Assembly (NCBI GenBank): GCA_900659855.1
Contig: CAACVI010000001.1
Coordinates: 113,179-177,178, forward strand
Origin: Candidatus Desulfarcum epimagneticum
GTDB lineage: Bacteria; Desulfobacterota; Desulfobacteria; Desulfobacterales; CR-1
Length of the DNA stretch: 64,000 bases
Direction: 5' to 3'
Under the pieces are notes generated by a model. It was not told the origin of the DNA and did not search any database. It saw only the letters and a list, made by a program, of their open reading frames with translations. Made by a program: the position numbers and the translations under genes. Positions 3,236-58,376 of the stretch are shown here, in pieces. Positions within the stretch are counted from its first letter, which is position 1. Each line of letters begins with the position of its first letter.

Positions 3236-3567
3236 CTCAGAAAAATGACCTGGTCCTGATTTATTTCAAAGATGTTCCCACGGTTTTCGCCCGCGTCGAC
3301 CAGATTGACCCGGACCCAAAGCCCGGCTGGTACCATGTGACGCTGCTGTTTCTCCAGGTTCCCCTTCAGACGATGGTCTGGCTTCTTCGGGACGCGCAGA
3401 TCAACGGGGAGGAATTCACCATGGACGGGAACCGGATCCGCATGGAAAAAATACCCCCCTCCATTGAAAAGCCCCGCCGGGATGAGGAAAAGGAAGAGGC
3501 GAAAACGCCCCCGGCGTCGGGAAAGATGATCTCTTTGTCCGAAAGAAGGCCGAAAAAAAACCCATGA
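3232..3567 (+). CDS. hypothetical protein with a charged C-terminal tail
   Basis: Internal ATG of track ORF 3055..3567, chosen because it overlaps the upstream stop (ATGA). 111 aa; its stop overlaps the next ATG in ATGA (3564-3567). Confidence 0.5.
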   Translation: MTQKNDLVLIYFKDVPTVFARVDQIDPDPKPGWYHVTLLFLQVPLQTMVWLLRDAQINGEEFTMDGNRIRMEKIPPSIEKPRRDEEKEEAKTPPASGKMISLSERRPKKNP

Positions 3568-4490
3568 CGCGAGCCGGGAAAATCACGATTTCGGCGTCCC
3601 GCAGGACCGACATTCCGGCCTTTTACATGGAATGGCTCATGGACCGGATTGTCAACAGGGGTTTTTTTGAGACCGTCAATCCCTACAGCCGGAAAACCTC
3701 CGTTGTCCCGGCCGGCCCCGATCAAGTGGGGGCCATCGTGTTCTGGTCCAAAAATTTCGGCCCCTTTTTAAAGGAAAAGCGCGGGGAGACTCTGCTTAAA
3801 AAAGGCTTTCACCTTTATTTCCACTTTACCCTCAACTCAAAGGACCGTCTCCTGGAGCCCCGCGTTCCGCCCCTTGAGGACCGTCTGGAGCAGATGAAGG
3901 CCCTGTCGGAGCGGTTCGGCGCCCAAAACGTCAACTGGCGCTTTGATCCGGTGTGCTTTTACCGAACGAGCGGGAAATCCCGGCACAATCTGGCCGACTT
4001 TCCCGTCATCGCCGAAACGGCGGCCCGGGGGGGCGTCGCCTCGTGCGTGACCAGCTTCATGGACCATTATCCCAAAATCAGCCGAAGAATCCCCGCCCAA
4101 AGCGGCTTTGGTTTTTTCGACCCGCCTCTTTCCCGAAAGATCGAAACCGCCCTTCGCATGGAGAATCTTTTGGCGCCCATGGGAATCGCGCTTTCCCTGT
4201 GCTGCGAAAAGGCGGTCCTGGAGGGTCTGCCCGCCGAGTCGAATATTCAAAAAAGCGCCTGTGTGCCCAACGATTTTTTCATCCGGGAATTCGGCGGCCC
4301 CCTTTCCACTTCCCGGGACCGGGGCCAGCGGCCCGGATGCGGGTGCATGGTCTCGGTGGATGTGGGCGTTTACCATCTCCACCCCTGCCCCCATGACTGC
4401 CTGTTCTGCTACGCCAATCCCCAATCGGCCCGTCTCCCCGAAACCCCCGGGAAAAATCCGGGGAGGAAAAATGGAGGCCGTTTTCAATGA
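3564..4490 (+). CDS. DUF1848-like protein with a C-terminal CX3CX2C cysteine motif
   Basis: 308-aa ORF. The N-terminal ISASRRTDIPAFY resembles DUF1848 as I remember it. C-terminal CPHDCLFCYAN fits the CX3CX2C spacing. The stop overlaps the dus start (ATGA, 4487-4490). Confidence 0.65.
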   Translation: MTRAGKITISASRRTDIPAFYMEWLMDRIVNRGFFETVNPYSRKTSVVPAGPDQVGAIVFWSKNFGPFLKEKRGETLLKKGFHLYFHFTLNSKDRLLEPRVPPLEDRLEQMKALSERFGAQNVNWRFDPVCFYRTSGKSRHNLADFPVIAETAARGGVASCVTSFMDHYPKISRRIPAQSGFGFFDPPLSRKIETALRMENLLAPMGIALSLCCEKAVLEGLPAESNIQKSACVPNDFFIREFGGPLSTSRDRGQRPGCGCMVSVDVGVYHLHPCPHDCLFCYANPQSARLPETPGKNPGRKNGGRFQ

Positions 4491-5488
4491 AAATCGGTTC
4501 CGTGACGCTTGAAAATCCCCTGGTTCTGGCCCCCCTGGCCGGCATCACCCATCTTGCCTTTCGCTTCCTGGCAAAGGAAGAGGGCTGCGCCCTGGTGTGC
4601 TCGGAAATGATCAGCGCCAACGGCCTGGTCCGGGGCTCGGCCAAAACCCGTAAGATGCTGGAAAGCGATCCTAAGGAAAGGCCCCTTTCCGTCCAGATTT
4701 TCGGCTCCGAGCCGCCGGTCATGGCCGAGGCGGCCCGGATGGTGGAGGAGGCGGGCGCCGATATTCTGGACATCAACTTCGGGTGCTCGGTGAGAAAAAT
4801 CCTGAAAAGCGGCTCAGGCTCGGCCCTGATGAAATCCCCCCGAAACGCCGAGACGCTGATCAAAGCCGTTCGAAAGGCCATTCAAATCCCTTTGACCATC
4901 AAAATTCGGAGCGGGTGGGACCCCTCGGGGGAGGACGCCCTGAAAATCGCCGAGATCGCCGAAGACCAGGGCGTGGACGCCATCGCGGTTCATCCCAGGA
5001 CCGCCCGGCAGGGCTTTTCCGGAACCGCCGACTGGTCCGTGATCGCCGCCGTCAAGAGGGCCGTGTCCATTCCGGTGACGGGAAACGGCGACGTGACCCG
5101 CCCCGGGGATGTCTTGAGGATGATGGCCGAAACCGGGTGCGACGCCGTGATGATCGGAAGGGCGGCCATCGGAAATCCCTGGATTTTTTCCCAGGCCGCC
5201 GCCCTTTTAAAGGGGGACGAAACAAAGGAGCCGTCTTTGTCCGAGCGGTTCCGCGTCATGAAACGGTTCCTGGAGGGCTGCGTGGCGCTTTTCGGGGAAA
5301 AAAACGCCTGCCGCATGATGCGAAGCCGTCTTCCCTGGTTTGTCAAGGGGCTTCCCCACAGCTCCCGGTTCAGAGAATCGGTCAAACAGGTGTCCAGCCA
5401 AAAAGAGGCCGGGGAGCGGATAGAGTCCTACCGGGGTTTTTTAGAAGAGCGCCGCCCCGGCCCTCAGCCGCCTTCCGACGCCGGATAG
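4487..5488 (+). CDS. dus: tRNA-dihydrouridine synthase (Dus family)
   Basis: 333-aa ORF with a typical Dus N-terminus (LENPLVLAPLAGIT), DINFGC and AVHPRTARQ motifs. Confidence 0.85.
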   Translation: MKIGSVTLENPLVLAPLAGITHLAFRFLAKEEGCALVCSEMISANGLVRGSAKTRKMLESDPKERPLSVQIFGSEPPVMAEAARMVEEAGADILDINFGCSVRKILKSGSGSALMKSPRNAETLIKAVRKAIQIPLTIKIRSGWDPSGEDALKIAEIAEDQGVDAIAVHPRTARQGFSGTADWSVIAAVKRAVSIPVTGNGDVTRPGDVLRMMAETGCDAVMIGRAAIGNPWIFSQAAALLKGDETKEPSLSERFRVMKRFLEGCVALFGEKNACRMMRSRLPWFVKGLPHSSRFRESVKQVSSQKEAGERIESYRGFLEERRPGPQPPSDAG

Positions 5489-5906
5489 GCCGCCGACACC
5501 CGGGCGTCGATCCCCCCCCGGGCGGTGAATTCCCCCGTCACTTCCATTCTTTTGGGTTTGATCCTTTCACACAAATCGTCCAGTATCCGGTTGACCACAT
5601 GCTCATAAAAAATCCCCACGTTCCGGTACTGAAGCAGGTAATACTTCAGGGATTTCAACTCGATGATTTTTTGATCCGGCGTGTACCGCACGGAAATGGT
5701 CGCGTAATCCGGAAGACCCGTCATGGGGCAGACCGATGTGAACTCGGGCTGGCGAATCACGATATCGATGTCTCTTTTCCCGCTGTAGGCGTAGTCGATG
5801 GGATCGAGAATCCCGGCCTTCACAGAGCCGGGATCTTCAATGGCATAGGGCGGTTTGGGGGCGGCTTTTTTTGCGGTCATGGCGAAACGCTCCTCACATG
5901 TCTTCA
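5450..5906. repeat. left copy of a 457-bp direct repeat (whole queF, its 5' leader and the last 13 codons of dus)
   Basis: By-eye alignment to 16436-16892 shows the same length, no indels and about a dozen substitutions. Confidence 0.9.
5464..5880 (-). CDS. queF: NADPH-dependent 7-cyano-7-deazaguanine (preQ0) reductase, unimodular type, copy 1
   Basis: 138-aa ORF with catalytic-Cys context VCPMTGLPD and the QueF motif ELKSLKYYL. Converges on dus and overlaps its 3' end by 25 nt. Confidence 0.9.
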   Translation of the reverse strand: MTAKKAAPKPPYAIEDPGSVKAGILDPIDYAYSGKRDIDIVIRQPEFTSVCPMTGLPDYATISVRYTPDQKIIELKSLKYYLLQYRNVGIFYEHVVNRILDDLCERIKPKRMEVTGEFTARGGIDARVSAAYPASEGG

Positions 5907-5921
5907 GTATACGCGCAATCG

Positions 5922-6338
5922 CTATTTCTTCGCGCCGGCCACCTGAAACTGATCCTCAAACATCACCTGGGCCGCAAACCATTGGTTTTTTGATTTGTAA
6001 AAATAAAACTCCCACAAAACAGGATGACGCTCATGCCGGGCGAGTTCGACAATTCTTACCAAAGACGGGGAAAGCGCCTCTGTGTGTATATTTTCAGTTC
6101 CGAGAAATGAACCGTAAAGCGCCTGGACTGAGCCTGCGCGCTGTTTCATAAGGGTGAGCTGCTCGGCCCTTTGGCCCGACAGCGGATTTTTGGAATAAAG
6201 TTTGTCAATCGCCACCGCTTGTTTTCCGGCCGAATAGTCTTTGAAAAACGCGGCCACCTGTTCCTTGGGTTCGCCATCATACGCATGGGCCCAGGAGGCC
6301 ATTAACAATATGATCAGTATCGTCGCCAACCTTGCCAT
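5922..6338 (-). CDS. secreted hypothetical protein
   Basis: 138-aa ORF with an N-terminal signal-like segment (LATILIILLMASWAHA). Same strand as the RHS gene and downstream of it. Confidence 0.5.
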   Translation of the reverse strand: MARLATILIILLMASWAHAYDGEPKEQVAAFFKDYSAGKQAVAIDKLYSKNPLSGQRAEQLTLMKQRAGSVQALYGSFLGTENIHTEALSPSLVRIVELARHERHPVLWEFYFYKSKNQWFAAQVMFEDQFQVAGAKK

Positions 6339-6452
6339 AAATGCTTCTTTCCGTGTTTGAATTCTGGTTGAAACCTTGATGCGGCCCCGCCTACCGGGGT
6401 GGAAAGATGTTGCGGGCGCGTGAAAAATCGATTTTTTTAAAGCCGGCCGGCG

Positions 6453-6947
6453 TCAGTCCATGGCCTCAAGGTCTTTTTTGATGATTCCGGCTAAAAATTT
6501 CCAGGTGATGGGTTTCATGTCGTTGAGGGCCTTTAAAAACTCCAGGTTTCCCTGGTCCGGGAAGACGATCTTTTTCCCGTCCAGATTAAAGGTCAAATAA
6601 AGATTCCTAATCATGGAATTGATATTTTGAGTTTTTGCAATCATATCTTCTTTTCTGCACATATAAAAAACAATCTCTTTTTTTTCAGGATCGATTTCCG
6701 CCTTATACGCAAAGTTTCGGAAGCCTATCACTATCATCAAATAAATAGACAAAAAAATCGGAAAAAGAGCCATTAATGATACTCGAAATGCCGGGCCAAA
6801 ACCGTCATCGTGAGCATACCAAAGCCCGATGCCAATGAAAGACAGCCCTAAAATTTGGCCCACATATCTGATTACATAAAAACCGAATTTCCCGTTGTTC
6901 ACCACAATGCGTTTCTCTTCGTTCTCAACGTATGATTGATCCATCAA
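6453..6947 (-). CDS. small membrane protein; candidate immunity protein for the RHS C-terminal domain
   Basis: 164-aa ORF with two clear hydrophobic spans (GQILGLSFIGIGLWY; LMALFPIFLSIYLMIVIGF). A/T-rich. It is the first gene downstream of the RHS stop, after a gap of about 97 bp. Confidence 0.5.
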   Translation of the reverse strand: MMDQSYVENEEKRIVVNNGKFGFYVIRYVGQILGLSFIGIGLWYAHDDGFGPAFRVSLMALFPIFLSIYLMIVIGFRNFAYKAEIDPEKKEIVFYMCRKEDMIAKTQNINSMIRNLYLTFNLDGKKIVFPDQGNLEFLKALNDMKPITWKFLAGIIKKDLEAMD

Positions 6948-7044
6948 TCTTATCCCTCCTTTCCGCTTTCAGAGCTACATTTCCCGCCCTTCCCGCACAC
7001 GTCCGGGCACGGGCGGGAAAGGCCTCGCAATCATGCCGCTACCC

Positions 7045-10000
7045 TCAAGGGCCTATATCGCCCATATCGCTATCATCACTCTTCTGGTTGCCGGGAGAAG
7101 TCTTGCCATCCCCTCCTCCTTTGCCCCCGGCCTGGCTTTGCGGGGAGGCGCTTTGGGCCCCGGCCGGGCCGCTTTTTTCCTCGCGCCCCATGCCATGACG
7201 GGCTTTGGATTTTTTCGACCTGCCAAATAACTCCCCTAATTTCCCAAGGACGCTGGCCTTAAAACTTGTGGTCGCGCCCAAAGCTTTTTCAGCGGTTCCG
7301 GCGAACTTGGTTGCTGGACCCGCCATTTTTGTCACCATGGCTCCAGGAACGGCGGCTATCGGTCCAGTCACCGCGCCACTCTTCGCTCCCTCCCAGGCCC
7401 CTTTTACCGCGCCTTTCGTCACGCTTTCGCCTTTTTCCTGAGCTTCAAGTATGCCAGCGGCGGCGCCTCCGGCCGCCCCGGAAGCAGCCCCTGTAGCCGC
7501 TGAATCAATCGTCGCTGCCAGCGTAGCCCGGGCGGCTGTGGCCGCGCCTAAACTGCTTGTGCCAGGACTGACAAACCCAAGCGCAACTCCTACAACCCCG
7601 CCGACAATGCCGCCCACAACAGCGGCCTTCATATTGCCATCGGTGGTCATCATCCCGGTAGTGAAACCCGTGACCGCGCCGACAAATCCGCCGAAGATCG
7701 CCCCGGCGACACCCACATGCCCATCCGGATCCGTGTATATCAAAGGATTGTTCAGGCAGTAGGAATACCGGTTCAATGACTGGGGATTATACACGTCCGG
7801 CACGATGGTGTCCGGGGTGACAAATCGCCCGATGACCGGATCATACAACCTTGCGTCATAATTGTAAAGCCCGGTGGAGGTGTCCAGCTCCTGATCGGTG
7901 AATTTGTAGTCCGACACAACCGAGCCGGTATGGGCCCTCATTGAGCCAAAAGGCATATACTCCGATGTCTCGACCGCTTGAGCCCTGTTAGCAGGGGGCA
8001 TGCCAAGAAACCTCCCGTCTGTGGTAACCGACGAACTGCCAAGATGGTCTTTATGAAAATAATGGACGGTTCCTCCGGTTGTTGTGCTTGGTACGATTTT
8101 GGCGATGCGCAGGTTGCCCGCGAAAATATATTTCACCGGGCTTCCATCGTTAATCTCGTAATTTTCATTGATGTACAAGACCGTGCTTCCCCCGGTGACG
8201 GCTTTTTTCACACGCTTTCCCTCGCCGTCGTATTCAAAGGTGGTGTCTGTCGTCGCGTCATTGACACACCTGGCGATTCCGGCGGGCATGTTTTCCTCAT
8301 TATAAGATATTGTTCTTCGGGCTACTTGAGCGGGATTGGTAAAATCCCATCCGAAATTCATATTTCCATTTTGATCATATTGAAAAGTATATGTCGTTCC
8401 GCCGTTCAAAGTGATCGATCCCACAGCATGGCTGTGGGCGGCGTCATATGAATAAGCAAACTGATTCGTCCCGACCGTTTTTCTCAATATATTTCCTATG
8501 TCATTGTAAGTCAGGCTGACGCCAGAGTCATCACCGCCGTTATTGGTTTTGGTTTCTTGAACAAGCCTGTGGAGATCATCATAAGAATACGTGTATGTGA
8601 CGCCGGCCAAATGATCTTGTATAGAAGATATGTCTCCAGCAGGAGTGTAGGTGTACGACTTGTCCTGCCTGAGTTCATAGTGAGGGTCTTCTAGGCGGAC
8701 ACTCGTGGCTCCCCTGCCTCTTGATGTGGTGATGCGTGTCAGTCTCGTGGACAATGGATTGTACTCATATTTGGTGAATATGCCGTTGTTATAAGAAATG
8801 AGGCCCGGTTTTCCGTCCGGCGTATATTGGTAAAAACGTGCATGCGTGACGCTGTCTGAAGACCCAGTCCCCCATCGCCCAACCACAGCGCTGATAAGAC
8901 CGGAACCATAAACATGGCAGTACACAACCGTATAACCACCAGGATACGTCATTGACGTGAGTTTCCCGGAGAAATCGTAGACATATGAGGTGACGTAGGG
9001 GTTGCTCCGGATGTTTTTTGTCACTTTCGTCTTTCTTCCCATTTGATCGTATTCATACGTGTGTTTAACATCTATTAGTATTTTTCCATTCGCCCTCAGA
9101 TTTGCCTTCAATATACCTGCTAATCTTCCTTTTCCATTTGGAGACTGATCATATAGATAAACATAAAAACCGCTGTTTCCAACGGATTTCCCATCAACCC
9201 TGTTTAAGGAGTCGTATGTGAATTTTATGATCTGTCCTTTGGCATCCGTCTGCTTTTTAAGGTTTCCGTTCAAATCATATTCGTAGCTCCAGGTTCCCAA
9301 ATCCGGATCAATCATTTGAGTTTTTCTGCCAAGCGTGTCATAATGATTTTCAGTCTCGTTTCCATCATGATCGTAGATATTCAGCAAATCCCCTGCGGCA
9401 TTATACGAATATCCTGTGTTCGTCCGGTCAGCGCCCATATGCTCTATCACAAGTATAATTCTGCCCAGATAATCCGTCTGTTCGGATCTTTTTCTGTCAT
9501 CGGGATCGGTCACAGTCGTTTTTAATCCACTGTATGCGTAGGAAGAAGCGATGACGGCGCCCGGGGCGGCGTCAGGAGCCGGATCCGGCTCCTCCACCCT
9601 GGAAAGCCTTCCACGGTGATCGTAGACGTTTCGAACATATGGATACTCTGAAGGAAGCGACGCCTCGGCGCCGGTGGCCGCTGTAAAATTCGTGCTGAAT
9701 GCCGGACCTTCAGTCAGATGATTTCTTCCCATATTATCATAGTGGATCTTTGTTAAAATGGTTTTAGCCACAGCCGGTCGAATAATCGGGTCGTTTTCCC
9801 CGAAGGTCACAATCCGTATCACCCTCCCCAGACCGTCAAAATATTCGTATTGATCCACTGTTTCGACGGTCGCTGTTGGGCTCCCGGTTTCCTTTATCTG
9901 CGTAAGCAAATAGGCGGGCGAAAAAACCCCTACTATTTCCTGATATTCAGTGTATGCGATTGTCATTTGTCCGTCGTCGGGATAATCGATCCGCACAGGA

Positions 10001-13000
10001 CGCCCGAAAACATCATAAGTATAACTTGTCACGTTTTCGTTTTCATCAGTGAAGGTGGAAATTTTGCCAAACTTGTAGTCGTAAGTGTATTCTTTTGCCA
10101 GTCCGGTCACCGGGTATGCTATTTTGACGGGGTATATATGGGTTTGGGTGTCATAGCTGATTGTTGTCACATGCCCTTTGGCGTCGGTCACGCTTGTGCG
10201 GTTTCCGTAAATGTCATATCCAAAACGGATTGTCGGATTGACTCCCGAATCATTCACATACTCAATAGATTCCAGATTGCCGGTCCCAGGGGAATAGCCA
10301 TAATTCTTTTCTCTTGCCTTTCCGCTAAACTCCCCCTCAATGGCTTCTCCGGTTTTCCGCCAGGTCCACCCGTCTGCCCTGAAGCCATAGTTCTGGTATG
10401 CAAATGTCGTGGTGACGTCTTCTCCGTTTGTTCCCGATGTGATCAGCTGTGTGACCTGGCCGTGATCGCCGTCATACGCATAATCCTCCTGATCAAAAAC
10501 CGTCAGATCATCATACTGTTCAACGCGTTTCCGATTAAGCCTTGCAAACCTCCATGGATCGCCCGTTGAACTTTCGTGCGCCTCCCAGGTGTAATCTGAT
10601 CTTTCCATCAAAGTCCCCCTGGGGTCTTTCATCTTAAGCGTTTCTGTTTTCCCGTGCAGAAATTCACCCTGATGAAAATCAGCCTCTTCGGTTGTGCCGT
10701 CCGGGTGGGTCTTTGTCACTGTCCGGAAACCCCGGAATCCCCTGTTCCTGAAATTGAACAGTCCCCCGGAGTAGCTGAAGCCTGTCGTGGATGAATTCGG
10801 CAAATCATCAGGATCCGACATTCTGTCTCTTACCACCAGTTGAGACGCCACCGGGAATGAGAATGGAAGAAACGTGTTGGGGTATGCGGTGGAATGTCTG
10901 TAAGTGATGTCCGTTGTCCCGCCGTAGGCGCTGGTGATTTGCGTGATCAGATCAGTGGGAGTTCCTCCGGCGTAATAAAACTGGAAATTGGAAGCAGGTA
11001 TTTTACGGGTGGCCCATAAGTCCCATCCTTCAGTCCCATACCCGAAAAGAGCGTCGGCTCTGCCGTCGCCATTGATGTCCCCCCATGATGTGACATCTCT
11101 GTATACGTTTCTGCCACTGCTATTAGGAATGGTTGTGTTACGGACTGCCGCAAAAGTCCCGTCACCATTTGACAACTGATATTGGTAATTACCGTTCCCT
11201 CCACTTGGCGAGGGCCGCCGTATTAAATCAGCCATGCCGTCGCCGTTTATATCCGCCAGGTGGATGCCGGTGTCGGAGTCTTTAAATCTTATTCGAGAAC
11301 TGTGGGCGCTGTGCCATCTCCTGTCCCCACTATTAAGATATGGATACAATATCGCGTCACCGTGCATAGGATAATCAGGGGCATAATCCACACGCATGGC
11401 ATCCACCAGGCCATCGCCGTTGATGTCCCCCCATACAGTGGAAGTAATCGTCGGCCAGTGGGATTTATAAGATATCAGGCCCGTATTATACCCGGCGCCA
11501 AAGGTTCCATTACCGTTGGATGGATAACATTGATAATACCTGTTTTGGTTTGTTGGCCCATTGGGGTCTCCCACCACCAAATCAGCGAGACCATCCCCGG
11601 TCAAATCCAGCAATCCCGCTACCTTCGACTTAGGCGTTCTGCCTTGAACTCTTTCTAATATTCTTCCTCCAGCATGTTCCAAACTCACCCTTCCGCCAAC
11701 CGGCGTTGTGTTTAGATATACTTCTGCGTGGAGAAATACCTCGAAGCCACTTACATTTATAGATGTCACAACAGCGTCCTGTTTTCCGTCGCCATTGATG
11801 TCCCCCCACCATGACTTGGCCACGATTTCGATATCTCGCCTAAATCCCCCGAAATCATATGCTGTGAAAGATCGAGGCAAAGGAATGTCCAAGCTGACCG
11901 GGCTATTAAAAGTTCCTCTTCGATTGGACAAGCTATACTTTAAGACAGCCCCGCTTCCCGGATGAGCTTCCGCTGTCACCAGATCGGAAACGCCGTCTCC
12001 GTTTATATCCACCAAGGCGCTGTCAAGTAGCACCTGATTGCCATGGGTAATAGTCTGACCCCTGGAATGACTCGCCCCGCCCCCGTTCTGCCACACAAAA
12101 CTTTCAAGCGGCCGGCTTGTCGTGCCATCCGACCCATACATCGTCACGTCGGTTAAACGGGAACGCCCGGTATGAGCCCCCTGGTTATAAGTCAGCTGGT
12201 ATCTCCGAACCAGCTGCCCCCCGGACAGCCTGCTGTTTGCCGCTGATGTCGCATTTGAATAGACCTCAATGCGCGCCAGTCTTTTGGCCGTTTTCACAGA
12301 AAATTTTGTTTTGTAGCTGAGCGGGGCGTCGCTCCTGGTCTCATAAACAAAGTTGATATAATTACTCTCAAATGCTCCGACGGGGCCGCCGGTATAAACA
12401 ATCTGGTCAGGATACAACTGCCCCTGATCCTTGGTATAGTAAATTCTCATGTAATTCCTGTTGGTGTCCTCTATCTTCTCCAGACCCCATTTGAACACAT
12501 TGTCTCCGCTCTCCTGCCTTCCTACGGATCTCGCTCCGTAATAAAACTTTGTCCCGTCTCTTGCCGTCACTTCCCATCCGCCCGTCGCGGAGTCGAAATA
12601 ATACTTTGAGAATTCCTCCTCAATTTTGGCGCCGTAATAATCGGAACCCCAGTCAGACCTTGACGCCAGATCATGCAATCCCCCGTTTTTCATCACCACA
12701 TAATCGTCGGCGCTGTAGTCCACGCCTTTTTTTGAGCAGCGCTGGATGAACCCGATGTTCAAAAACCACCCCATTCCGACGATTCCATTTTTAACCGCGC
12801 TACTGTATTTAAGGGAGAGACCGGGCTCAATGCCCGCCCTGCCGGGCGGCGCGATGATGGGAACGCTGTATTTGACCGCGCCGGTGGCATTGCTGATCTC
12901 AACGTTGCTGATATCGATCTCCGGCTTAACATCAATATCCACAGGGGGCACGGGTGGAGTAGGCTTCGCACCCTCGGGAACCGATTCCCCGACGGCGCCG

Positions 13001-13254
13001 TTAAAGTCATCGGCCTGATCATCAAAACCTTTGTCATAATCGTCTTCCCCGAAATCCTGAAGCGGTTCGTCCCCCATATCTTCGCTTATGAAGTCCGGGT
13101 TAAAGCCGTCTTCTTCCCCCCGCCATTCAACGGCGGTTTCGAAATCCGGCGAATCCGCATATTCTTCGGCGTTTCCCACGGCGGGAATCAGAACTGTGTG
13201 AAGAGTGAAAACCAGGGCCAGCAGACAATGGGCGATTTTTTTTTGAACCCACAT
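7045..13254 (-). CDS. fused TcB/TcC-type RHS (YD-repeat) polymorphic toxin with signal peptide
   Basis: 2069-aa ORF preceded by a strong RBS (AAGGAGGGGA). It has a signal-like N-terminus and an SpvB-type block (KYSVPIIAPPGRAGIEPGLSLKYSS..GMGW). Six FG-GAP/VCBS-like DINGDG motifs and many YD repeats follow. The RHS core ends in LYDPVIGRFVTPD...NRYSYCLNNPLIYTDPDGH. Confidence 0.9.
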   Translation of the reverse strand: MWVQKKIAHCLLALVFTLHTVLIPAVGNAEEYADSPDFETAVEWRGEEDGFNPDFISEDMGDEPLQDFGEDDYDKGFDDQADDFNGAVGESVPEGAKPTPPVPPVDIDVKPEIDISNVEISNATGAVKYSVPIIAPPGRAGIEPGLSLKYSSAVKNGIVGMGWFLNIGFIQRCSKKGVDYSADDYVVMKNGGLHDLASRSDWGSDYYGAKIEEEFSKYYFDSATGGWEVTARDGTKFYYGARSVGRQESGDNVFKWGLEKIEDTNRNYMRIYYTKDQGQLYPDQIVYTGGPVGAFESNYINFVYETRSDAPLSYKTKFSVKTAKRLARIEVYSNATSAANSRLSGGQLVRRYQLTYNQGAHTGRSRLTDVTMYGSDGTTSRPLESFVWQNGGGASHSRGQTITHGNQVLLDSALVDINGDGVSDLVTAEAHPGSGAVLKYSLSNRRGTFNSPVSLDIPLPRSFTAYDFGGFRRDIEIVAKSWWGDINGDGKQDAVVTSINVSGFEVFLHAEVYLNTTPVGGRVSLEHAGGRILERVQGRTPKSKVAGLLDLTGDGLADLVVGDPNGPTNQNRYYQCYPSNGNGTFGAGYNTGLISYKSHWPTITSTVWGDINGDGLVDAMRVDYAPDYPMHGDAILYPYLNSGDRRWHSAHSSRIRFKDSDTGIHLADINGDGMADLIRRPSPSGGNGNYQYQLSNGDGTFAAVRNTTIPNSSGRNVYRDVTSWGDINGDGRADALFGYGTEGWDLWATRKIPASNFQFYYAGGTPTDLITQITSAYGGTTDITYRHSTAYPNTFLPFSFPVASQLVVRDRMSDPDDLPNSSTTGFSYSGGLFNFRNRGFRGFRTVTKTHPDGTTEEADFHQGEFLHGKTETLKMKDPRGTLMERSDYTWEAHESSTGDPWRFARLNRKRVEQYDDLTVFDQEDYAYDGDHGQVTQLITSGTNGEDVTTTFAYQNYGFRADGWTWRKTGEAIEGEFSGKAREKNYGYSPGTGNLESIEYVNDSGVNPTIRFGYDIYGNRTSVTDAKGHVTTISYDTQTHIYPVKIAYPVTGLAKEYTYDYKFGKISTFTDENENVTSYTYDVFGRPVRIDYPDDGQMTIAYTEYQEIVGVFSPAYLLTQIKETGSPTATVETVDQYEYFDGLGRVIRIVTFGENDPIIRPAVAKTILTKIHYDNMGRNHLTEGPAFSTNFTAATGAEASLPSEYPYVRNVYDHRGRLSRVEEPDPAPDAAPGAVIASSYAYSGLKTTVTDPDDRKRSEQTDYLGRIILVIEHMGADRTNTGYSYNAAGDLLNIYDHDGNETENHYDTLGRKTQMIDPDLGTWSYEYDLNGNLKKQTDAKGQIIKFTYDSLNRVDGKSVGNSGFYVYLYDQSPNGKGRLAGILKANLRANGKILIDVKHTYEYDQMGRKTKVTKNIRSNPYVTSYVYDFSGKLTSMTYPGGYTVVYCHVYGSGLISAVVGRWGTGSSDSVTHARFYQYTPDGKPGLISYNNGIFTKYEYNPLSTRLTRITTSRGRGATSVRLEDPHYELRQDKSYTYTPAGDISSIQDHLAGVTYTYSYDDLHRLVQETKTNNGGDDSGVSLTYNDIGNILRKTVGTNQFAYSYDAAHSHAVGSITLNGGTTYTFQYDQNGNMNFGWDFTNPAQVARRTISYNEENMPAGIARCVNDATTDTTFEYDGEGKRVKKAVTGGSTVLYINENYEINDGSPVKYIFAGNLRIAKIVPSTTTGGTVHYFHKDHLGSSSVTTDGRFLGMPPANRAQAVETSEYMPFGSMRAHTGSVVSDYKFTDQELDTSTGLYNYDARLYDPVIGRFVTPDTIVPDVYNPQSLNRYSYCLNNPLIYTDPDGHVGVAGAIFGGFVGAVTGFTTGMMTTDGNMKAAVVGGIVGGVVGVALGFVSPGTSSLGAATAARATLAATIDSAATGAASGAAGGAAAGILEAQEKGESVTKGAVKGAWEGAKSGAVTGPIAAVPGAMVTKMAGPATKFAGTAEKALGATTSFKASVLGKLGELFGRSKKSKARHGMGREEKSGPAGAQSASPQSQAGGKGGGDGKTSPGNQKSDDSDMGDIGP
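7048..7716 (-). other. RHS C-terminal variable (payload) domain, 223 aa, Gly/Ala-rich and glycine-zipper-like
   Basis: This is the sequence after the DPDGH boundary. It begins VGVAGAIFGGFVGAVTGFTTG...VVGGIVGGVVGVALGF (GxxxG-type hydrophobic repeats). Ala/Gly/Lys-rich low complexity follows, ending in an acidic tail. Confidence 0.6.
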
Positions 13255-13676
13255 AATCTCCCCTCCTTATATGCTTTGGGTTAATAATTTTCTAAAATTT
13301 TTAATCCATTAGTATATATTTACATAGACCATTTCAACCTTATTTATAGAAAAAATAGGAAGAATTTTGTAATAATAGAAAAAATTAGGAAAATTTGGAA
13401 AACTATTTTTCTAAATCTTGAAATATTCCGACTTACGTTTTGCGCGCGCAAAATAAGGCAAGGCACGTATCTTCGATCAACAAAACGCGTCCCAAAAATC
13501 GCCAAGGCCCGTCCGGACCGGGCGGCGATACGAGAAACCGGCAAATACGACATCAAATGGGTTCTGTTTCCGGAAGGCAATAACGAATCCATCATTTTTT
13601 TCTTGAATAAAATCCGTTCCAAGGCTATACAAACAAAAAAGGGCGTGGGGCATCCCCATGTTTTTTTTGTTCTCCG

Positions 13677-13726
13677 GGCCGTCAGCCTGTCACTCGCCAA
13701 AGTCTTCAGGCTGATGGCCTTTTTTT
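13677..13726 (+). terminator. intrinsic-terminator-like hairpin inside the A/T-rich region upstream of the RHS gene
   Basis: GGCCGTCAGCCTG, a 17-nt loop, CAGGCTGATGGCC, then TTTTTTT. The stem is 13 bp with one G-U pair. No convincing ORF ends here. Confidence 0.5.
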
Positions 13727-14580
13727 GCGCTGGAAAACTTGCCTGTTATTCGTCTTTAAAAAAAAATCCACCAAAAAAAACAAACGGCTCAACATTTTCC
13801 ACACAAAAAAAATTCATATTTTTCGGGTTGTGTCAAGGATTTCGAGGAAATATTTAAAATTTTGCTTATATTTTTATTCAATTATGAATCATTAAATTAT
13901 AACTTTTATGCGCAAAATCACGTTCAAAAAAGGGATTTGACGGCGCCAGAGAAGGGGCTTAAATAAAAAGCGAGAAGTTTTAATAGTATTTCTTGATATA
14001 TCAATGGATTAGAAGGAAAAACAGGGGCCTTTCCCGGGTTATATTTTTAATAAAAAATGACCGAAAAATTATCATTTTTGGCTTCAAAATTCGGCCCGAA
14101 CAGGAGAGGCTCGACCCGATTTTAAGATTTTTTGGGCTTCCATGCAGCGAATCCGGCGTTGCGACCGGCTTATGACCGGCGCCGAGTCCTCGGACCTTGT
14201 CGGCCCTGATGCCCTCGAACATACACATACTGTGACGACAAAAGCGCTCAAGCTTCTTGATGGGAAGAAGGTTGAAGGATATTTGCGTATTGAGAGAGTT
14301 TATGGTCAAACAGGGGGTTGTAAACAGCAAAGAATTTAAAAAGTGAACGGAACTCTCGGTAGAAGGCCCATTTTTCGGGGCTGGTCCATCGCCTATCCGC
14401 TCGGATTGATCTGGTGGCGCTCTTGGAGCTTGCCGCGCTTTTTTTTCGACGCAATGTTTTTCTCTCAAGGTTTTTTCAAAAACAGTCCGCTTTTTCCCTT
14501 GCGCGTCTATCCTGGAATGGGTATATTAAAAAAGAATGCGCAAAAGACTTTCAGGAATTTATAGATGCGAGGAACGGCCC

Positions 14581-15036
14581 ATGAGCGATGAAAACAGCCA
14601 GGCGCAAGCGCCTCAAATGGACATGCAGATGCTGATCGCCGGGATTATTCCCAACGTCAAGCATTTCGACAGCCGTTTTGATCTGCTCCAGGTTCAGATA
14701 GACGGCCTGAAAAATGGTCAGAACGAATTGAAGGACAGGATCGGACGCCTGGAGACAGGGGTGGACCGGCGTTTTGAGCAGGTGGACAAACGCTTTGCGC
14801 AGGTGGACAAACGTTTTGAACAGGTGGACAAACGCTTCGAGCAGGTGGATCGGCGTTTCGAGCAGGTGGACAAACGTCTGGAGCAAATCGCGGTTTCAAT
14901 TGATCGCCTGGGGGACAAGCTGGATCGAAGAGATGAGGGCCAGCGGAATTTTACGATCAAAATGTTTTCCATCGCCGTCACCATATCCGTTCTGGGAGTG
15001 TCCGGGGCGTTCTTAAAGGTTTTGGGCATCATTTGA
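14581..15036 (+). CDS. tail-anchored coiled-coil protein with tandem (R/K)RFEQVD heptads
   Basis: ATG at 14581 has GAGGA 7 nt upstream (the track ORF starts at 14536). Contains six 21-bp/7-aa repeats and one C-terminal hydrophobic helix (MFSIAVTISVLGVSGAFLKVLGII). Confidence 0.6.
   Translation: MSDENSQAQAPQMDMQMLIAGIIPNVKHFDSRFDLLQVQIDGLKNGQNELKDRIGRLETGVDRRFEQVDKRFAQVDKRFEQVDKRFEQVDRRFEQVDKRLEQIAVSIDRLGDKLDRRDEGQRNFTIKMFSIAVTISVLGVSGAFLKVLGII
14761..14886 (+). repeat. 6 x 21-bp tandem repeat (GTGGACAAACGYTTYGAGCAG-like) encoding the heptads
   Basis: Units read directly at 14761, 14782, 14803, 14824, 14845 and 14866. Confidence 0.9.
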
Positions 15037-15097
15037 TGGCGTCGTAAAAAAAATGCGTCGCAGCGCTTATTTTTAATCAAGGCATACTACTGTCATG

Positions 15098-15721
15098 TCA
15101 AGCGTTAAAAGTCGGATAAAGCCGACGCAGTTTTATTCGCGCGTCTTCAGATGTGAATTGCCAATTTACTTTGGCGTTTTTATTGTTTCTGGCTTTCTGC
15201 CATGCATGCGCTTCCTTTTTCACGTTTTGAATATCGTCAATTCTTCTTTTTAAACACTGCCCAATGAGAACATTTAATTCTATTTCAGCCATATTTAGCC
15301 AACTGCCGTGTTTTGGAGTATACACAAAATCGAATCTGTCCCATAATTTTTTTGCCTTGTCCGGTCGAAAAGTTTCATACAAAGCGCCAGGCGTATGTGT
15401 GTTCAGATTGTCCATGACCAGCGTTATCTTTTGAGCTTTTTCATAAGCCGAGGCAATTTCTTTTATAAAAAATGCCCAGTCTTTTTTTGTCTTTCTCTCA
15501 GTGATTTTTACCATTCGGTTTCCCGCAAGAGGCTCACATGCCATGAAAATATTACACACCCCGAAACGCTTGTATTCATAATCATACCTCTCCGGTTTGC
15601 CGGGCGACGCTGAAATAGGAATCTTTGTTTCTCCAATCAATTGTTTTGGCGATTCATCCATGCATATCACTGGAAACTTTGGATCAAATGGACGTTTGTA
15701 AACATCCAAAACTTTTTCCAT
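15098..15721 (-). CDS. IS630-family transposase, DDE catalytic part (orfB)
   Basis: 207-aa ORF with IS630/Tc1-like stretches (ICMDESPKQL, ITLVMDNLNTH, HGSWLNMAEIE). Confidence 0.75.
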   Translation of the reverse strand: MEKVLDVYKRPFDPKFPVICMDESPKQLIGETKIPISASPGKPERYDYEYKRFGVCNIFMACEPLAGNRMVKITERKTKKDWAFFIKEIASAYEKAQKITLVMDNLNTHTPGALYETFRPDKAKKLWDRFDFVYTPKHGSWLNMAEIELNVLIGQCLKRRIDDIQNVKKEAHAWQKARNNKNAKVNWQFTSEDARIKLRRLYPTFNA

Positions 15722-15756
15722 ATGCGCGACAAAGCTGCAATTTTGTTTCGGCGGAA

Positions 15757-16230
15757 TTACCCATCCTTTACGCAGCCATGGTTTGATTTCGTTTTTTTTA
15801 AAATGCCACGAATAGTTTCATGTGATACACTTTCAATGTAATCAAGCTCGACAACCTTTTCTGCCAGCAAACGCAAACTCCATCTGGAAAAACCCTCTGG
15901 GGCCTCGCTGCAACTCAGCGCAACCAAGCGTGCCTCGAAATCCCCGTCGGTTTTCTTTTTATATATACGACTTCCTTTTTTCCCGTTCAGTGTAATATCA
16001 ATACCATCTTCAACAAAACGTTTTTTCACGCGGTCAATTTTTTTCATACTGACGTTCAGAACTTTTGAAATCTCTTTGTTTTTAGAGCGATTTTTCTGAA
16101 ATTCACCATCATCACATCCAAGCAAAATTAATGCGTTAAGAATTTTTTGAGACTTATGTTTTCCCTTTGATGTGAGCGCCATAAGATTGTTTCGTTCAGC
16201 TTCTGTCAACGTTACTATATATTTTTTCAT
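15757..16230 (-). CDS. IS630-family transposase, N-terminal HTH part (orfA)
   Basis: 157-aa ORF ending just after an A8 run. A -1 shift in that run reads on as KKNEIKPWLRKGWVIPPKQNCSFVAHMEKV.. into orfB. This is either programmed frameshifting or a homopolymer error. Confidence 0.75.
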   Translation of the reverse strand: MKKYIVTLTEAERNNLMALTSKGKHKSQKILNALILLGCDDGEFQKNRSKNKEISKVLNVSMKKIDRVKKRFVEDGIDITLNGKKGSRIYKKKTDGDFEARLVALSCSEAPEGFSRWSLRLLAEKVVELDYIESVSHETIRGILKKTKSNHGCVKDG

Positions 16231-16435
16231 AATACGCCCCCCTTCGGCAATTATGAAAAATATAGCATACTTTATGCGACTTTACAAGCTTGACGTGACA
16301 CTACATGTATTGCCTCAATTAAAAATAACCACTACGCCTTGTATATCGAATTTTTAACTTAGCCATCCCAAACTTTTTTACGAGTTTATCATCATTTGAC
16401 TGATCCCTGGCCCCGCCCGTTTGATCTCTGAAAGA

Positions 16436-16892
16436 CGCCGCCCCGGCCCTCAGCCGCCGTCCGACGCCGGGTAGGCCGCCGACACCCGGGCGCCGATCCC
16501 CCCCCGGGCGGTGAATTCCCCCGTCACTTCCATTCTTTTGGGTTTGATCCTTTCACACAGATCGTCCAGTATCCGGTTGACCACATGCTCATAAAAAATC
16601 CCCACGTTCCGGTACTGAAGCAGGTAATACTTCAGGGATTTCAACTCGATGATCTTCTGATCCGGCGTGTACCGAACGGAAATGGTCGCGTAATCCGGAA
16701 GACCCGTCATGGGGCACACCGATGTGAACTCGGGCTGGCGAATCACGATGTCGATGTCTCTTTTCCCGCTGTAGGCGTAGTCGATGGGATCGAGAATCCC
16801 GGCCTTCACAGAGCCGGGATCTTCAATGGCATAGGGCGGTTTGGGGGCGGCTTTTTTTTCAGTCATGGCGAAACGCTCCTCACATGTCTTCA
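16436..16892. repeat. right copy of the 457-bp direct repeat
   Basis: Aligns to 5450-5906 (see the left copy). Confidence 0.9.
16450..16866 (-). CDS. queF: preQ0 reductase, copy 2
   Basis: Start taken at MTEKKAAPK (cat at 16864-16866), matching copy 1. The two proteins differ at 3 of 138 residues (A3E, D->G, E->D). The track ORF extends further upstream to 17040. Confidence 0.85.
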   Translation of the reverse strand: MTEKKAAPKPPYAIEDPGSVKAGILDPIDYAYSGKRDIDIVIRQPEFTSVCPMTGLPDYATISVRYTPDQKIIELKSLKYYLLQYRNVGIFYEHVVNRILDDLCERIKPKRMEVTGEFTARGGIGARVSAAYPASDGG

Positions 16893-17094
16893 ATGACGCG
16901 TTCAAATTCGGACTTCCTGGATTCGGCATATCAAATTTTCCCCGGCCCGGCCAGGGGTTTTTCGAAAAGTGTGGGGAATGTTCGCATGGCGGGGCGCTTT
17001 TTTGTTTTTGAAAAAAACTTGATTTAATATTTATTTTCACATAAACATTTCTTAAAATTAATTTTTAATCATCCTTTTTAAGGATTTCTATCAA

Positions 17095-19245
17095 ATGATA
17101 AATTTTTTTTTGTTTTTTTTAAACCGATTTCGTTTTTTTCTGTTTGCGGCCCTGTGCATGATTCATTTCATGGCCGGAGGGGCCGCCGGGGCCACAAAGA
17201 CCACCCGGGATTATGTCAGATTTTCATGGTCTCCCATCTCCAACGTGACCTCCTATCATTTCCAGGTCAGCGATCGGGCCGATTTTTCAAATCTGCTGGT
17301 TGATGAGCGTCTGGACAGACGGCTTCCCACCTATCTGTGCCGCCCTCCTCTGCCGGAAGGAACGATTCATGCAAGGGTCAGGGGAAGAAAGAAAACCACC
17401 GGACTTTACGGCCCTTTTGTCCGATTGGAGCCCGTTGTGATTGAAGAGGCGGATCCCGATCCACGCTGGATCTCCGACACCCCTGATTCATTATCGGGAG
17501 TGACGGTCGACCCCCGCCCCACATTTTCGTGGTCTCCCATCCCCAACGTGACCTCTTATCAGTTTCAGGCCGGCGATCAGGCGGATTTTTCAGGCCTGCT
17601 GATTGATGAGCGTCTGGACAGACTTGTCACATCCCATACGCCCGACTTTGATCTGCCGGACGGAACGATTTACGCAAGGGTGAGGGGAAGGAAAAAGACC
17701 ACCGGACTTTACGGACCCTTTGTCCAAATGCCCTCCGTCGTGATTGACACGACTCCGCCCGGCGCTGATGACAAGCCTGTTCCGGAGATTTTTCCCGGCG
17801 ACGCCACCTCTGATCAAACCCCGGCGTTCATATGGTCCCCGCCCCGGGAGTCGGACGATGTGGTCGCCTATCGTCTCGCGGTCAGAGGCGATCATTTGCG
17901 CAATCATTTCACAGTCGGCGATATCCTGAATTTCAGCGCTCTGATCCAAAAGATCAATGACCCTGACAAAGCTGTTTCACAGTACGTCAAGGGAAAATTT
18001 TCATCTTCCGGGAAAACGCTTTTAAATGCCTATCAGGGTTCCCGTACCCTTTCCGGACCTGAAAAAAGGGTTATTGCGGGAAATCTCAACAATTTGCTTG
18101 ACGACCCTGACCTGTATTCGGAAGAGCGTTTCCCCATGGATTCTCTTACCCCGGAAATTCGGTGGGCGATGGTGGGAAATCCCGGGGCCAAAGATTTACA
18201 ACTTTCCGTTTTGAATCGCCGTCTGCTGGAATATGCCTTTCAGGAGGAAATTATTGCTTCAAGCGCTGTCTTTTCGGACTTAATGGATGGCGATAGATAT
18301 TTTTTCATCAACGCAGTGATCAAGGCATCCGACGCGTCTGTATTGACTTCGTCAGGGACAACAGGGGTTTCCTGTTCTGTTTCCACGGACTCTTCCAAAA
18401 AGTTCACATGCGAGCCGACGCCCCGCCTGACAGATGGGGCCTTCTACGCGAGGGTCAGCGCCATCGATCCTTTCTGGAATGAAGGCCCCCTTGTGGACAT
18501 GGGGTGGCTGTTGGTGGACACTGTCCCCCCGGGTCCTCCTCAGAACACTGGGCTTTCAGTCGGCTCCGATCCCCAAAGGCCAAAATTTTCGTGGGACCCG
18601 CCGGCGGATTCTTCCGATGTGAAGGATTATGAGGTTTTGATGGCCGATTCTCCCTCCTTTGACGCGGACAGCGCCAAAGGCCATGCCAAAATTATGGTGG
18701 GCGATGGAAGCGTCACCAACCACAAAACCGCTATCCGACTTTCCTGCGAGGCGACCTCCAACTCATACCAATGCGTTCCCACATCTGATTTGAGCTCCGG
18801 AACCATATACGCCAAAGTCAGGGCTGTGGACGGCGCGGAGAATCCAAGCTCTTTTACCACTGCGTCTTCGCATACGATAAGCGCTGCCTCTTCCAGGCGG
18901 CGTTCTTCCTCGTCATCCGGGTCTCCGAATGCCCAGGAAACGGGCTTGGCTACTACTGTGGGGTCCATTGATGTCGGGATGGGCATTGAGGATCAGGCGC
19001 TTTTCAAAGACCCCCATCTGGCCGCCGCCATCCGGGAGGCTCTGGGTGTGGAAGAGGGGAGCCCCATCGCCCGGGGGGATTTGGCGACGCTGGAGAGCCT
19101 GGATATAAGCGAGCGGGAGGTGACGGATTTCAGCGGCCTGGAAAACGCCGTTCGCCTTTTCAGTCTGACGATCAACCTCTCCCAGGCTTCAGAGCTGTGG
19201 AAGTTGTCCGATCTTGAGTCGTTAAGAGAGGTGATTATTGAATAA
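17095..19245 (+). CDS. large secreted protein with repeated FN3-like modules and a C-terminal LRR-like segment
   Basis: 716-aa ORF with a hydrophobic N-terminus. It has two near-duplicate modules of about 90 aa (FSWSPI(S/P)NVTSY(H/Q)FQ...ARVRGRKKTTGLYGPFV) and further (F/I)(S/I)W(S/D)PP..D.V..Y modules. The C-terminus is LRR-like (LATLESLDIS..FSGLENAVRLFSL). Confidence 0.6.
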   Translation: MINFFLFFLNRFRFFLFAALCMIHFMAGGAAGATKTTRDYVRFSWSPISNVTSYHFQVSDRADFSNLLVDERLDRRLPTYLCRPPLPEGTIHARVRGRKKTTGLYGPFVRLEPVVIEEADPDPRWISDTPDSLSGVTVDPRPTFSWSPIPNVTSYQFQAGDQADFSGLLIDERLDRLVTSHTPDFDLPDGTIYARVRGRKKTTGLYGPFVQMPSVVIDTTPPGADDKPVPEIFPGDATSDQTPAFIWSPPRESDDVVAYRLAVRGDHLRNHFTVGDILNFSALIQKINDPDKAVSQYVKGKFSSSGKTLLNAYQGSRTLSGPEKRVIAGNLNNLLDDPDLYSEERFPMDSLTPEIRWAMVGNPGAKDLQLSVLNRRLLEYAFQEEIIASSAVFSDLMDGDRYFFINAVIKASDASVLTSSGTTGVSCSVSTDSSKKFTCEPTPRLTDGAFYARVSAIDPFWNEGPLVDMGWLLVDTVPPGPPQNTGLSVGSDPQRPKFSWDPPADSSDVKDYEVLMADSPSFDADSAKGHAKIMVGDGSVTNHKTAIRLSCEATSNSYQCVPTSDLSSGTIYAKVRAVDGAENPSSFTTASSHTISAASSRRRSSSSSGSPNAQETGLATTVGSIDVGMGIEDQALFKDPHLAAAIREALGVEEGSPIARGDLATLESLDISEREVTDFSGLENAVRLFSLTINLSQASELWKLSDLESLREVIIE

Positions 19246-21103: not shown

Positions 21104-21109
21104 GGGGAG

Positions 21110-21815: not shown

Positions 21816-21828
21816 TTTATAGCCTTTT

Positions 21829-23892: not shown

Positions 23893-23954
23893 GATGATTC
23901 CTTCTTGATTGATTTGTTTAAAATTTTAAATTGATAAAATTCGACTGGTGAGCC

Positions 23955-25067: not shown

Positions 25068-25167
25068 ATTATGTTGTCTGTATTTTTGGGTTTGGATCAA
25101 AAAGAGGCAAAAAACCTCATTTTGTTATGGTCTTATAGGACGACTTTCGCCATAAGTCAAGCCCTGA

Positions 25168-58367: not shown

Positions 58368-58376
58368 GAAAAATGA

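Follow-up and report, generated by a model that had tools for sequence, protein, structure and literature searches.

In a 64,000-nt stretch of the genome of Candidatus Desulfarcum epimagneticum (contig CAACVI010000001.1, positions 113,179 to 177,178; this whole stretch is called the window below, and coordinates refer to it), a 10.5-kb island encoding a large RHS/YD-repeat toxin lies between two direct copies of a 457-nt segment, each of which contains a complete gene for the preQ1 synthase QueF. The organism is an uncultured, magnetotactic ectosymbiont of a euglenozoan protist. The origin that we tentatively favour, with a probability of about 0.45, is a single-crossover (Campbell-type) recombination between the resident queF and a conspecific queF allele, diverged by about 2.4%, to which the island was linked. 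The evidence for the repeat, the island and the surrounding gene order is presented first, before this origin is weighed against in-situ duplication, an artefact of assembly and a degenerate site-specific element.

Results

Comparison of 5450-5906 with 16436-16892, position by position at an offset of 10,986 nt, gave 446 identical positions out of 457 (97.6%), with 11 mismatches and no insertions or deletions. A search of the window for repeats recovered the same pair independently, and the sole other long repeat was a family of miniature inverted-repeat transposable elements (MITEs). The match ends abruptly: identity is at background level just outside both ends, and local alignment of 200 nt of flank on each side scored no better than shuffled sequences, indicating no homology past the ends. 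Besides the whole 138-codon queF, each copy includes 26 nt of leader, in which GAGGAG forms the ribosome-binding site, and the final 13 codons of dusB, a convergent gene. Because dusB and queF overlap by 25 nt, just 14 nt of the dusB tail lie outside queF, and the duplicated unit is almost exactly one gene plus its ribosome-binding site. The QueF domain was recognised above cut-off in both copies (Pfam PF14489, 104 bits; NCBIfam TIGR03139, 143.5 bits with a cut-off of 86.9), and both genes are annotated in the GenBank record, on a contig of 505,962 bp, where queF2 (VEN72625.1) is called 13 codons longer from an upstream ATG and thus has 151 amino acids (aa).

All 11 substitutions fall inside the queF open reading frame (ORF). 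Eight are synonymous and three change the protein (A3E, D125G, E136D), giving a synonymous divergence (dS) of 0.086, a non-synonymous divergence (dN) of 0.0096 and a dN/dS ratio of 0.11; if 11 changes fell at random, the binomial probability that at most three would be replacements is 8e-4. The residues that are invariant across ten QueF proteins are all kept in both copies, including the catalytic Cys51 and the ELKSLKYY motif, so that both contain the E(S/L)K(S/A)hK(L/Y)(Y/F/W) motif of QueF and the catalytic cysteine and differ only at residues 3, 125 and 136. The peptide encoded by the dusB tail, RRPGPQPPSDAG, is the same in both copies. The GC content at third codon positions (GC3) of the two genes, 0.70 and 0.72, is native-like, and the longest identical run between the copies measures 108 nt. 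A first-pass annotation of this DNA had described a collinear 457-nt repeat without indels and with about a dozen substitutions, had placed a complete 138-codon queF, about 26 nt of leader with its ribosome-binding site and the last 13 dus codons in each copy, and had counted three changes to QueF, the others being synonymous, also in the dus frame. Profile searches and base counts agree with it on each of these points. They likewise support its preference for functional, independently diverged alleles over a decaying duplicate, a history with which the pattern of divergence between queF1 and queF2 appears consistent.

The two genes differ in what precedes them. queF1 starts 41 nt past the stop codon of orf138, without separate intergenic space for a promoter. 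queF2 has an intergenic region of 228 nt, shared with the divergent gene at 17095, as had been noted before for the right-hand copy alone. No terminator-like site was found in the 41-nt gap between orf138 and queF1, and scans with promoter and terminator consensus sequences gave nothing better than shuffles.

Independent support for the structure was sought in a k=31 assembly (Logan) of the run ERR2856278, which we compared with the window. Three of its contigs are 100% identical to 2806-5537, 5877-9622 and 16863-25225 and thereby reproduce three of the four repeat junctions (5449|5450, 5906|5907 and 16892|16893); the fourth is the gene-free junction 16435|16436. Each contig ends exactly 30 nt (k-1) past the last copy-specific base, as expected if the reads hold two copies of the repeat. 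All three stop within the repeat and, with k=31, do not phase the 11 single-nucleotide polymorphisms (SNPs) across a copy.

The 10.5-kb island between the repeats is compositionally foreign. Its GC content is 0.476 (5907-16435), compared with 0.58 and 0.57 in the flanks, and the GC3 of its genes ranges from 0.35 to 0.64, where most core genes in the window lie between 0.70 and 0.79 and several near 0.61-0.63. These values bear out the earlier remark that the DNA between the repeats is richer in A/T. Among the island ORFs of at least 60 aa, profile searches of the 10.5 kb detected none with an integrase or recombinase domain, nor any excisionase or remnant of one, in agreement with the first-pass annotation, which had found no integrase. 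The sole mobility gene of the island is the transposase of a later IS630-family insertion sequence (IS), and the island contains no replication or transfer genes. No tRNA or tmRNA genes, Rfam families or riboswitches were detected within the 64-kb window, and no inverted repeat or att-like core was found at the repeat ends. A weak CGCGT motif just outside the leader end of both copies is a match within chance. The single clearly novel junction is 16435|16436, which joins the island to dusB codon 321 without microhomology; the short spacer in front of it (16400-16435) has no similarity to the dusB flank.

Table 1. Coordinates of the island, its repeats and the neighbouring genes in the window.
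Feature	Position	Strand	Basis or remarks
dusB, tRNA dihydrouridine synthase B, 333 aa	4487-5488	+	Pfam Dus 300 bits; TIGR00737 360 bits (cut-off 293)
Left repeat copy	5450-5906		Alignment to right copy; independent contigs cross both outer junctions
queF1, preQ1 synthase (unimodular QueF), 138 aa	5464-5880	-	Pfam, NCBIfam; identical to VEN72617.1
orf138, exported, full-length, DUF3887-like (UniRef name)	5922-6338	-	Signal peptide, hydrophobic segment 1-19
orf164, small membrane protein	6453-6947	-	Directly downstream of RHS gene; hydrophobic segment ~50-80
RHS/YD-repeat toxin, 2069 aa	7045-13254	-	Pfam, NCBIfam, translation
C-terminal variable tip of RHS protein, aa 1847-2069 (223 aa), Gly/Ala-rich	7048-7716	-	Translation, hydrophobicity
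AT-rich non-coding spacer, 1.3 kb, GC 0.40	13255-14535		Between divergent RHS and coiled-coil genes
Coiled-coil protein, 166 aa	14536-15036	+	Six 21-nt heptad repeats QVDKRFE; C-terminal transmembrane anchor
IS630-family insertion sequence	15037-16389	-	NCBIfam NF033545 148.9 bits (cut-off 100); Pfam DDE_3, HTH_32
36-nt spacer	16400-16435		Between restored stop of coiled-coil gene and right repeat
Right repeat copy	16436-16892		Alignment to left copy; independent contig crosses right junction
queF2, 138 aa	16450-16866	-	Pfam, NCBIfam; matches VEN72625.1
Right-flank gene, 716 aa	17095-19245	+	N-terminal hydrophobic segment; weak Ig-like/fn3 matches; GC3 0.60
queH, epoxyqueuosine reductase	19222-19800	-	Pfam PF02677 200 bits (cut-off 23.5); also flagged in gene table of Logan contig

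For the gene order around queF, 80 related Desulfobacterales loci were compared; among the genome matches listed, relatives were at most 76% identical. A block of orf170, DUF1848 and dus genes is convergent to queF in 43 of the 80 loci, directly abutting it in 12 of these and 1-10 kb apart in the others. The nearest relative, a 1,561-bp contig from JGI sample 3300072015 with a QueF that is 94% identical, has the same 25-nt overlap with a convergent gene. Since the convergent dus recurs in so many loci and the overlap in the nearest relative, the dusB|queF junction at 5449|5450, with the last 13 dusB codons (5450-5488) inside the left repeat copy, is ancestral. The right copy also carries 14 nt of dusB coding sequence and must therefore derive from a queF that was adjacent to dusB. 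In 22 of 63 related Desulfobacterales loci, polA is located upstream of queF on the same strand, 82-1978 nt away, as the commonest neighbour, and the synteny at the level of the order is polA, queF and then the convergent dusB-DUF1848-orf170 block. The region upstream of queF is variable across the related loci. As polA is absent from the whole 64-kb window, a rearrangement breakpoint is present on the 5' side of queF in Desulfarcum. A second queF occurs in none of the 80 loci. Accordingly, the first-pass annotation's own counter-evidence, related genomes carrying both queF copies, did not turn up, and neither did the island-free order of dus, queF and the gene at 17095 that it had asked for. 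No homologue of the gene at 17095 was found near queF in these loci.

On the right-hand side, queH lies 2.4 kb from queF2 as a second gene of the queuosine pathway, with yggS and maf behind it. Without the island and one queF copy, dusB, queF, the gene at 17095 and queH would form a plausible native neighbourhood of tRNA modification genes. We also considered whether accessory DNA lies on both sides of queF2; this idea was weakened by the identification of 19222-19800 as queH and by the several core genes with GC3 values near 0.61-0.63.

The nearest relative has an ORF on the same strand that ends 207 nt upstream of its queF. A 46-aa fragment upstream of queF in this contig was considered as a homologue of orf138 and rejected, as it is absent from the matches of the orf138 search. 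A scan of metagenomes with a degenerate, clade-specific queF pattern matched no contig. Look-ups of both QueF proteins by exact sequence likewise gave no match, and homology search led to the genome.

The cargo of the island is a typical SpvB/FG-GAP/RHS toxin, although its tip is unclassified. The order of domains in the RHS protein is a Sec signal peptide, SpvB, an FG-GAP propeller, TcdB_midN, the RHS shell, the Rhs-associated core and the 223-aa tip. In the N-terminal module PF03534, PF13517, PF01839 and PF12256 all score above cut-off, the RHS repeats match PF05593 with 110 bits, and the Rhs-associated core (aa 1766-1846; TIGR03696 Rhs_assc_core, 75 bits, cut-off 32.5) ends with YTDPDGH (aa 1840-1846) and thus contains the DPxG motif. 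The tip has two hydrophobic, Gly-zipper-like segments (1847-1865 and 1874-1898) and matches none of the curated toxin families, the best hit being Gly-zipper_Omp with an E value of 0.013 and 15.9 bits (cut-off 25). It is a putative membrane-active toxin. The tip region (7045-7600) has a GC content of 0.61, with 0.64 at second codon positions resulting from Gly and Ala codons, and the core (7600-13254) has 0.50. In classical E. coli Rhs the tips are AT-rich, whereas here the relation is reversed and the tip is richer in GC than the core. The closest non-self homologue of the RHS protein has 42% identity and the same architecture; the closest homologues come from Desulfobacteraceae bins, where a lone RHS gene precedes a small ORF, and one, in a Desulfobacteraceae metagenome-assembled genome (MAG), adjoins serine and tyrosine recombinase genes.

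The position of orf164 directly behind the toxin gene suggests that it may encode an immunity protein. It has no family match, a scan of metagenomes gave no locus or relative, and the family is sparse, with 27 remote representatives among 1.84 billion proteins that come without usable gene context. The product of orf138 matches nothing in Pfam or NCBIfam, and its homologues (41-71% identity) are all about 138 aa long and located on low-GC contigs in unrelated contexts. An origin of orf138 as a native neighbour of queF was rejected, as the homologues never stand beside queF, nor beside RHS genes. For the coiled-coil protein, weak coiled-coil matches in Pfam were the only ones obtained, and a hydrophobic segment spans residues 139-166. 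The spacer between the RHS and coiled-coil genes presumably holds the promoters of both; ORFs within 13255-14535 have no family matches and junk translations, and a promoter scan of this spacer did not rise above shuffles. Thus, of the gene content listed by the first-pass annotation, the RHS toxin, the putative immunity gene, the secreted protein, the heptad-repeat protein and the IS630 copy were all recovered, but a separate MITE was not found inside the island.

The IS630-family element encodes an IS630-type DDE transposase with an N-terminal helix-turn-helix (HTH) domain, divided over an HTH ORF (15757-16230) and a DDE ORF (15098-15721) that cover positions 13-108 and 130-299 of NF033545. 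A direct duplication, CATCATTTGA (15027-15036 and 16390-16399), lies on both sides of it and takes in the stop codon of the coiled-coil gene. The ends of the IS match MITEs at 2611-2669, 25327-25416 and 60493-60584 with 98-99% identity. Because of its own flank duplication and the similarity of its ends to the MITEs of the window, this element is a later, local insertion and no part of the mechanism behind the queF repeat. A duplication of TA, which is expected for IS630 elements, was not observed; instead, the IS and each MITE have flank repeats of 8-10 bp of their own (CATCATTTGA, CAATGGTAAT, CATGCCTTG). The insertion target of the MITE copies is a loose CAnnnTTT(GA), in contrast to the TA duplication of IS630/Tc1-mariner elements. 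The MITE family derived from the IS ends is about 146-153 nt long and very dense, with at least eight copies in 64 kb (among them 2617-2769, 25169-25416, 41678-41814, 58221-58388, 59139-59215, 60437-60582 and 62065-62210), and the IS630-type copy is the full-length parent of this family. The HTH and DDE ORFs stand in different frames and are split at 15722-15805 on the minus strand, just downstream of a run of nine A, and the downstream DDE frame reads a typical KPWLRKGW motif ahead of its ATG. The split could be due to a programmed frameshift, a homopolymer mutation or a sequencing error.

Several further observations were made around the locus. The gene at 17095 contains two pairs of internal direct repeats with a spacing of 303 nt and 83-87% identity (17217-17747), which correspond to tandem 101-aa domains, and it probably encodes a surface protein. 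In none of the related Desulfobacterales loci is queH found within 10 kb of queF. The spacing between queF and dus in the relatives with convergent genes is about 0-110 nt in 12 loci, about 1.0-1.4 kb in 19 and 1.7-9.9 kb in 12, and these three groups suggest repeated insertions at the junction in other lineages. One related locus (JBDRRF010000086.1, 16166-19953 of locus L006) has a distant RHS-like gene with 24-28% identity about 5 kb past dusB, near its single queF; this proximity is probably coincidental. At 1035-2615 on the plus strand, the window encodes a 526-aa metallo-beta-lactamase/beta-CASP ribonuclease, for which the top NCBIfam model was 'type VII CRISPR-associated Cas14' with 368 bits, far under the cut-off of 800 bits.

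Discussion

The island is most probably a horizontally acquired accessory segment, and the single-crossover origin would account for its structure as follows. The incoming DNA would most simply have been a circle from a conspecific strain, 10,986 bp in size less the length of the later IS, in which the island was joined to the donor's own queF, consisting of 14 nt of the dusB tail, the ORF and the 26-nt leader. One RecA-type crossover with the resident queF, in a neighbourhood of dusB, queF, the 17095 gene and queH, would then have duplicated the 457-bp homology on either side of the insert without the need for an element-encoded recombinase. The mostly synonymous divergence of 2.4% would predate the integration. 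As a result, queF2 would have kept the native intergenic region, and queF1 would have become the last gene of the RHS-orf164-orf138 string, with which it might be co-transcribed. The IS630-family element would have been inserted into the island later, and RecA could excise the island again as a circle.

This origin is favoured because one illegitimate join (16435|16436) and one ordinary RecA event suffice, because the two contexts begin to differ at precisely the point where the homology ends, as a crossover between alleles of one locus would produce, and because it explains the synonymous divergence of 8.6% without repeats that escaped conversion and deletion for a long time. Direct paralogues of 457 bp at a distance of 10 kb are normally homogenised or deleted by RecA, as exemplified by the conversion between tufA and tufB, and a dS of 0.086 is therefore easier to understand as allelic divergence that existed beforehand. 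The first-pass annotation had already proposed Campbell-type integration; the divergence, the foreign composition, the lack of a recombinase, the ancestral junction of dusB and queF and the presence of queH at 2.4 kb all speak for it, but the island-free arrangement was not seen.

Several points weigh against this origin. The circle, the empty site and the donor allele are all hypothesised and none of them was seen. The lack of replication and transfer genes leaves the source of a circle unexplained, and its formation would need at least one illegitimate join, at 16435|16436, where no microhomology is found. The QueF of the relative (P0121) has E3 and D136 like queF2 and D125 like queF1, and thus gives no polarity to the differences. 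At the level of the order, it is polA and not the 17095 gene that precedes queF, so the resident arrangement that we assume is itself derived. The k=31 contigs leave the SNPs of each copy unphased, and the distinction between the integrated state and a circle plus an empty site therefore depends on the deposited assembly. Finally, Campbell integration, a long target duplication followed by divergence and a mis-phased episome look the same from the sequence.

In the case of an in-situ duplication, the island would have entered upstream of queF with a 457-bp target duplication and the copies would have diverged at this place under purifying selection; in a variant, a local 457-bp or a tandem 11-kb duplication would have been followed by deletion and recreated a promoter-proximal queF. 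The succession of left flank, repeat, insert, repeat and right flank is the exact structure of a target duplication, the sequence outside the repeats has a native look on both sides (dusB to the left, queH to the right), and both queF copies are intact and constrained. Moreover, queF1 and queF2 are each other's closest known relatives, with 98% identity at the amino acid level compared with 94% to the sole known close relative, and no donor allele is known. However, the dS of 0.086 would have had to build up in repeats 10.5 kb apart that were spared by gene conversion and deletion, no bacterial insertion mechanism is known to make a staggered duplication of 457 bp, and the variants with a later deletion or a dispersed copy require an end point that matches the island edge at 5906|5907 to the base. 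We regard a duplication in situ as somewhat unlikely. Bracketing of the island by queF copies would be absent from any single chromosome if the island and one queF belonged to a separate circle or strain variant that was threaded into the chromosome during assembly, or if a mis-join had occurred at the repeated IS/MITE sequence beside the right copy. The genome comes from an uncultured symbiont population, the right repeat copy is only 46 nt away from an IS whose ends share 98-99% identity with many MITEs, the repeat interrupts the k=31 contigs, and an integrated island shares its four junctions with a circle plus an empty site, the two states differing only in the phasing of SNPs across runs of at most 108 nt. 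Nevertheless, three junctions were recovered at 100% identity in the independent read assembly, common maximum k-mers and read lengths exceed the longest identical run (108 nt), so that phasing should have been within reach, and a 506-kb contig speaks against heavy mixing of strains. An artefact of this kind appears quite improbable to us, and even then the two diverged queF alleles and the novel junction between the island and the dusB tail would be real.

In the case of a degenerate site-specific element, an integrase since lost, or one acting in trans, would have inserted the island, together with a replacement queF, at a core site located in the leader or the 3' flank of queF. Diverged, mostly synonymous duplications that restore the target gene are typical of such elements, as for e14 at icd, and both the recombinase genes beside the RHS homologue in the Desulfobacteraceae MAG and the weak common CGCGT motif might be taken as hints in this direction. 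The 10.5 kb contain no integrase, excisionase or remnant, though, the duplication extends over the whole gene and is not confined to a part distal to a core site, the ends bear no inverted repeat or att-like core, and the CGCGT match is within chance. We consider this origin very improbable. Insertion next to a housekeeping or tRNA modification gene is shared with e14 and phage 21 at icd, SXT at prfC and the dusA-specific islands, and in these gene-restoring elements the duplicated segment differs mostly synonymously and a functional gene is kept, as observed here. Such elements bring their own tyrosine integrase and, on insertion, repeat no more of the target gene than lies past a short core site, whereas here an integrase is lacking and the gene is duplicated as a whole. 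Among the hallmarks of classical integrase islands, integrative and conjugative elements (ICEs) and prophages, the atypical composition is present in the Desulfarcum island; an integrase and a tRNA gene or att core are absent. Assignment to the dusA-type islands was rejected, as the gene is dusB (TIGR00737 at 360 bits, the DusA model being below cut-off) and no integrase is present; moreover, those islands are inserted in the 5' end of dusA, and here only the last 13, non-conserved codons of dusB are involved.

The single-crossover origin has its closest counterpart in Campbell insertion-duplication, as known from suicide vectors, Hfr formation and the insertion-duplication mutagenesis of transformable bacteria. 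There, as in the Desulfarcum locus, the insert comes to lie between direct duplicates of the homology, no element-encoded recombinase is involved and both copies can stay functional if the homology spans the whole gene; the insertion is reversible by RecA, which we propose for this locus as well. Different from the laboratory systems, the insertion is found in nature, in the chromosome of an uncultured symbiont; homology is provided by an entire housekeeping gene with 2.4% divergence from its resident counterpart, a toxin island without a replicon forms the cargo, and a circular form was not observed. Replacement flexible genomic islands and minimal mobile elements are exchanged by homologous recombination in flanking core genes (PMC4033161). 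They resemble the Desulfarcum island in that variable cassettes without machinery of their own are located beside conserved genes and rely on recombination by the host. The double crossover by which they are exchanged leaves no duplication, whereas here a flanking core gene is duplicated, which argues for a single crossover or a duplication. The cargo shares SpvB, FG-GAP, TcdB_midN, the RHS shell, the DPxG-ended core and a variable tip with Rhs/YD polymorphic toxins and Tc-toxin B-C fusions. A small downstream gene and a contrast in composition between tip and core are likewise found in Rhs/YD toxins, and an IS is located nearby as in E. coli Rhs. In contrast to Tc and Rhs systems, the tip matches no curated toxin family and the island has no TcA, PAAR or VgrG partner.

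The structure of the locus is real and tidy, and it represents an unusual variant of a known process rather than a new category; its value lies mainly in offering a testable instance, from an uncultured symbiont in nature, of how an island may insert without a recombinase. If the two queF copies arose by duplication in situ, the locus would be a gene duplication of the ordinary kind, maintained because selection favours a promoter-proximal queF. If the single-crossover origin is correct, the locus would provide a clear example from nature of an accessory toxin island whose entry into and exit from a chromosome require only homologous recombination by the host and a core gene taken along, and it would demonstrate genetic exchange among ectosymbionts of one protist host. 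To our knowledge, such a recombinase-free route for islands is assumed but seldom documented, because exchange by double crossover leaves no scar. Going further, the 10,986-bp unit could be a mobile element that lacks a recombinase, uses a complete housekeeping gene as a portable homology arm and depends on host RecA only, a proposition that we think is unlikely. It would imply a natural 'suicide-vector' toxin island that loops out of and re-enters conspecific chromosomes among the ectosymbionts on the protist, with a gene of the queuosine pathway under the control of a toxin operon and the dosage of queF doubled next to queH. In practical terms, the mobility of an island in an uncultured organism could be assayed simply at this locus, by outward PCR and the phasing of reads.

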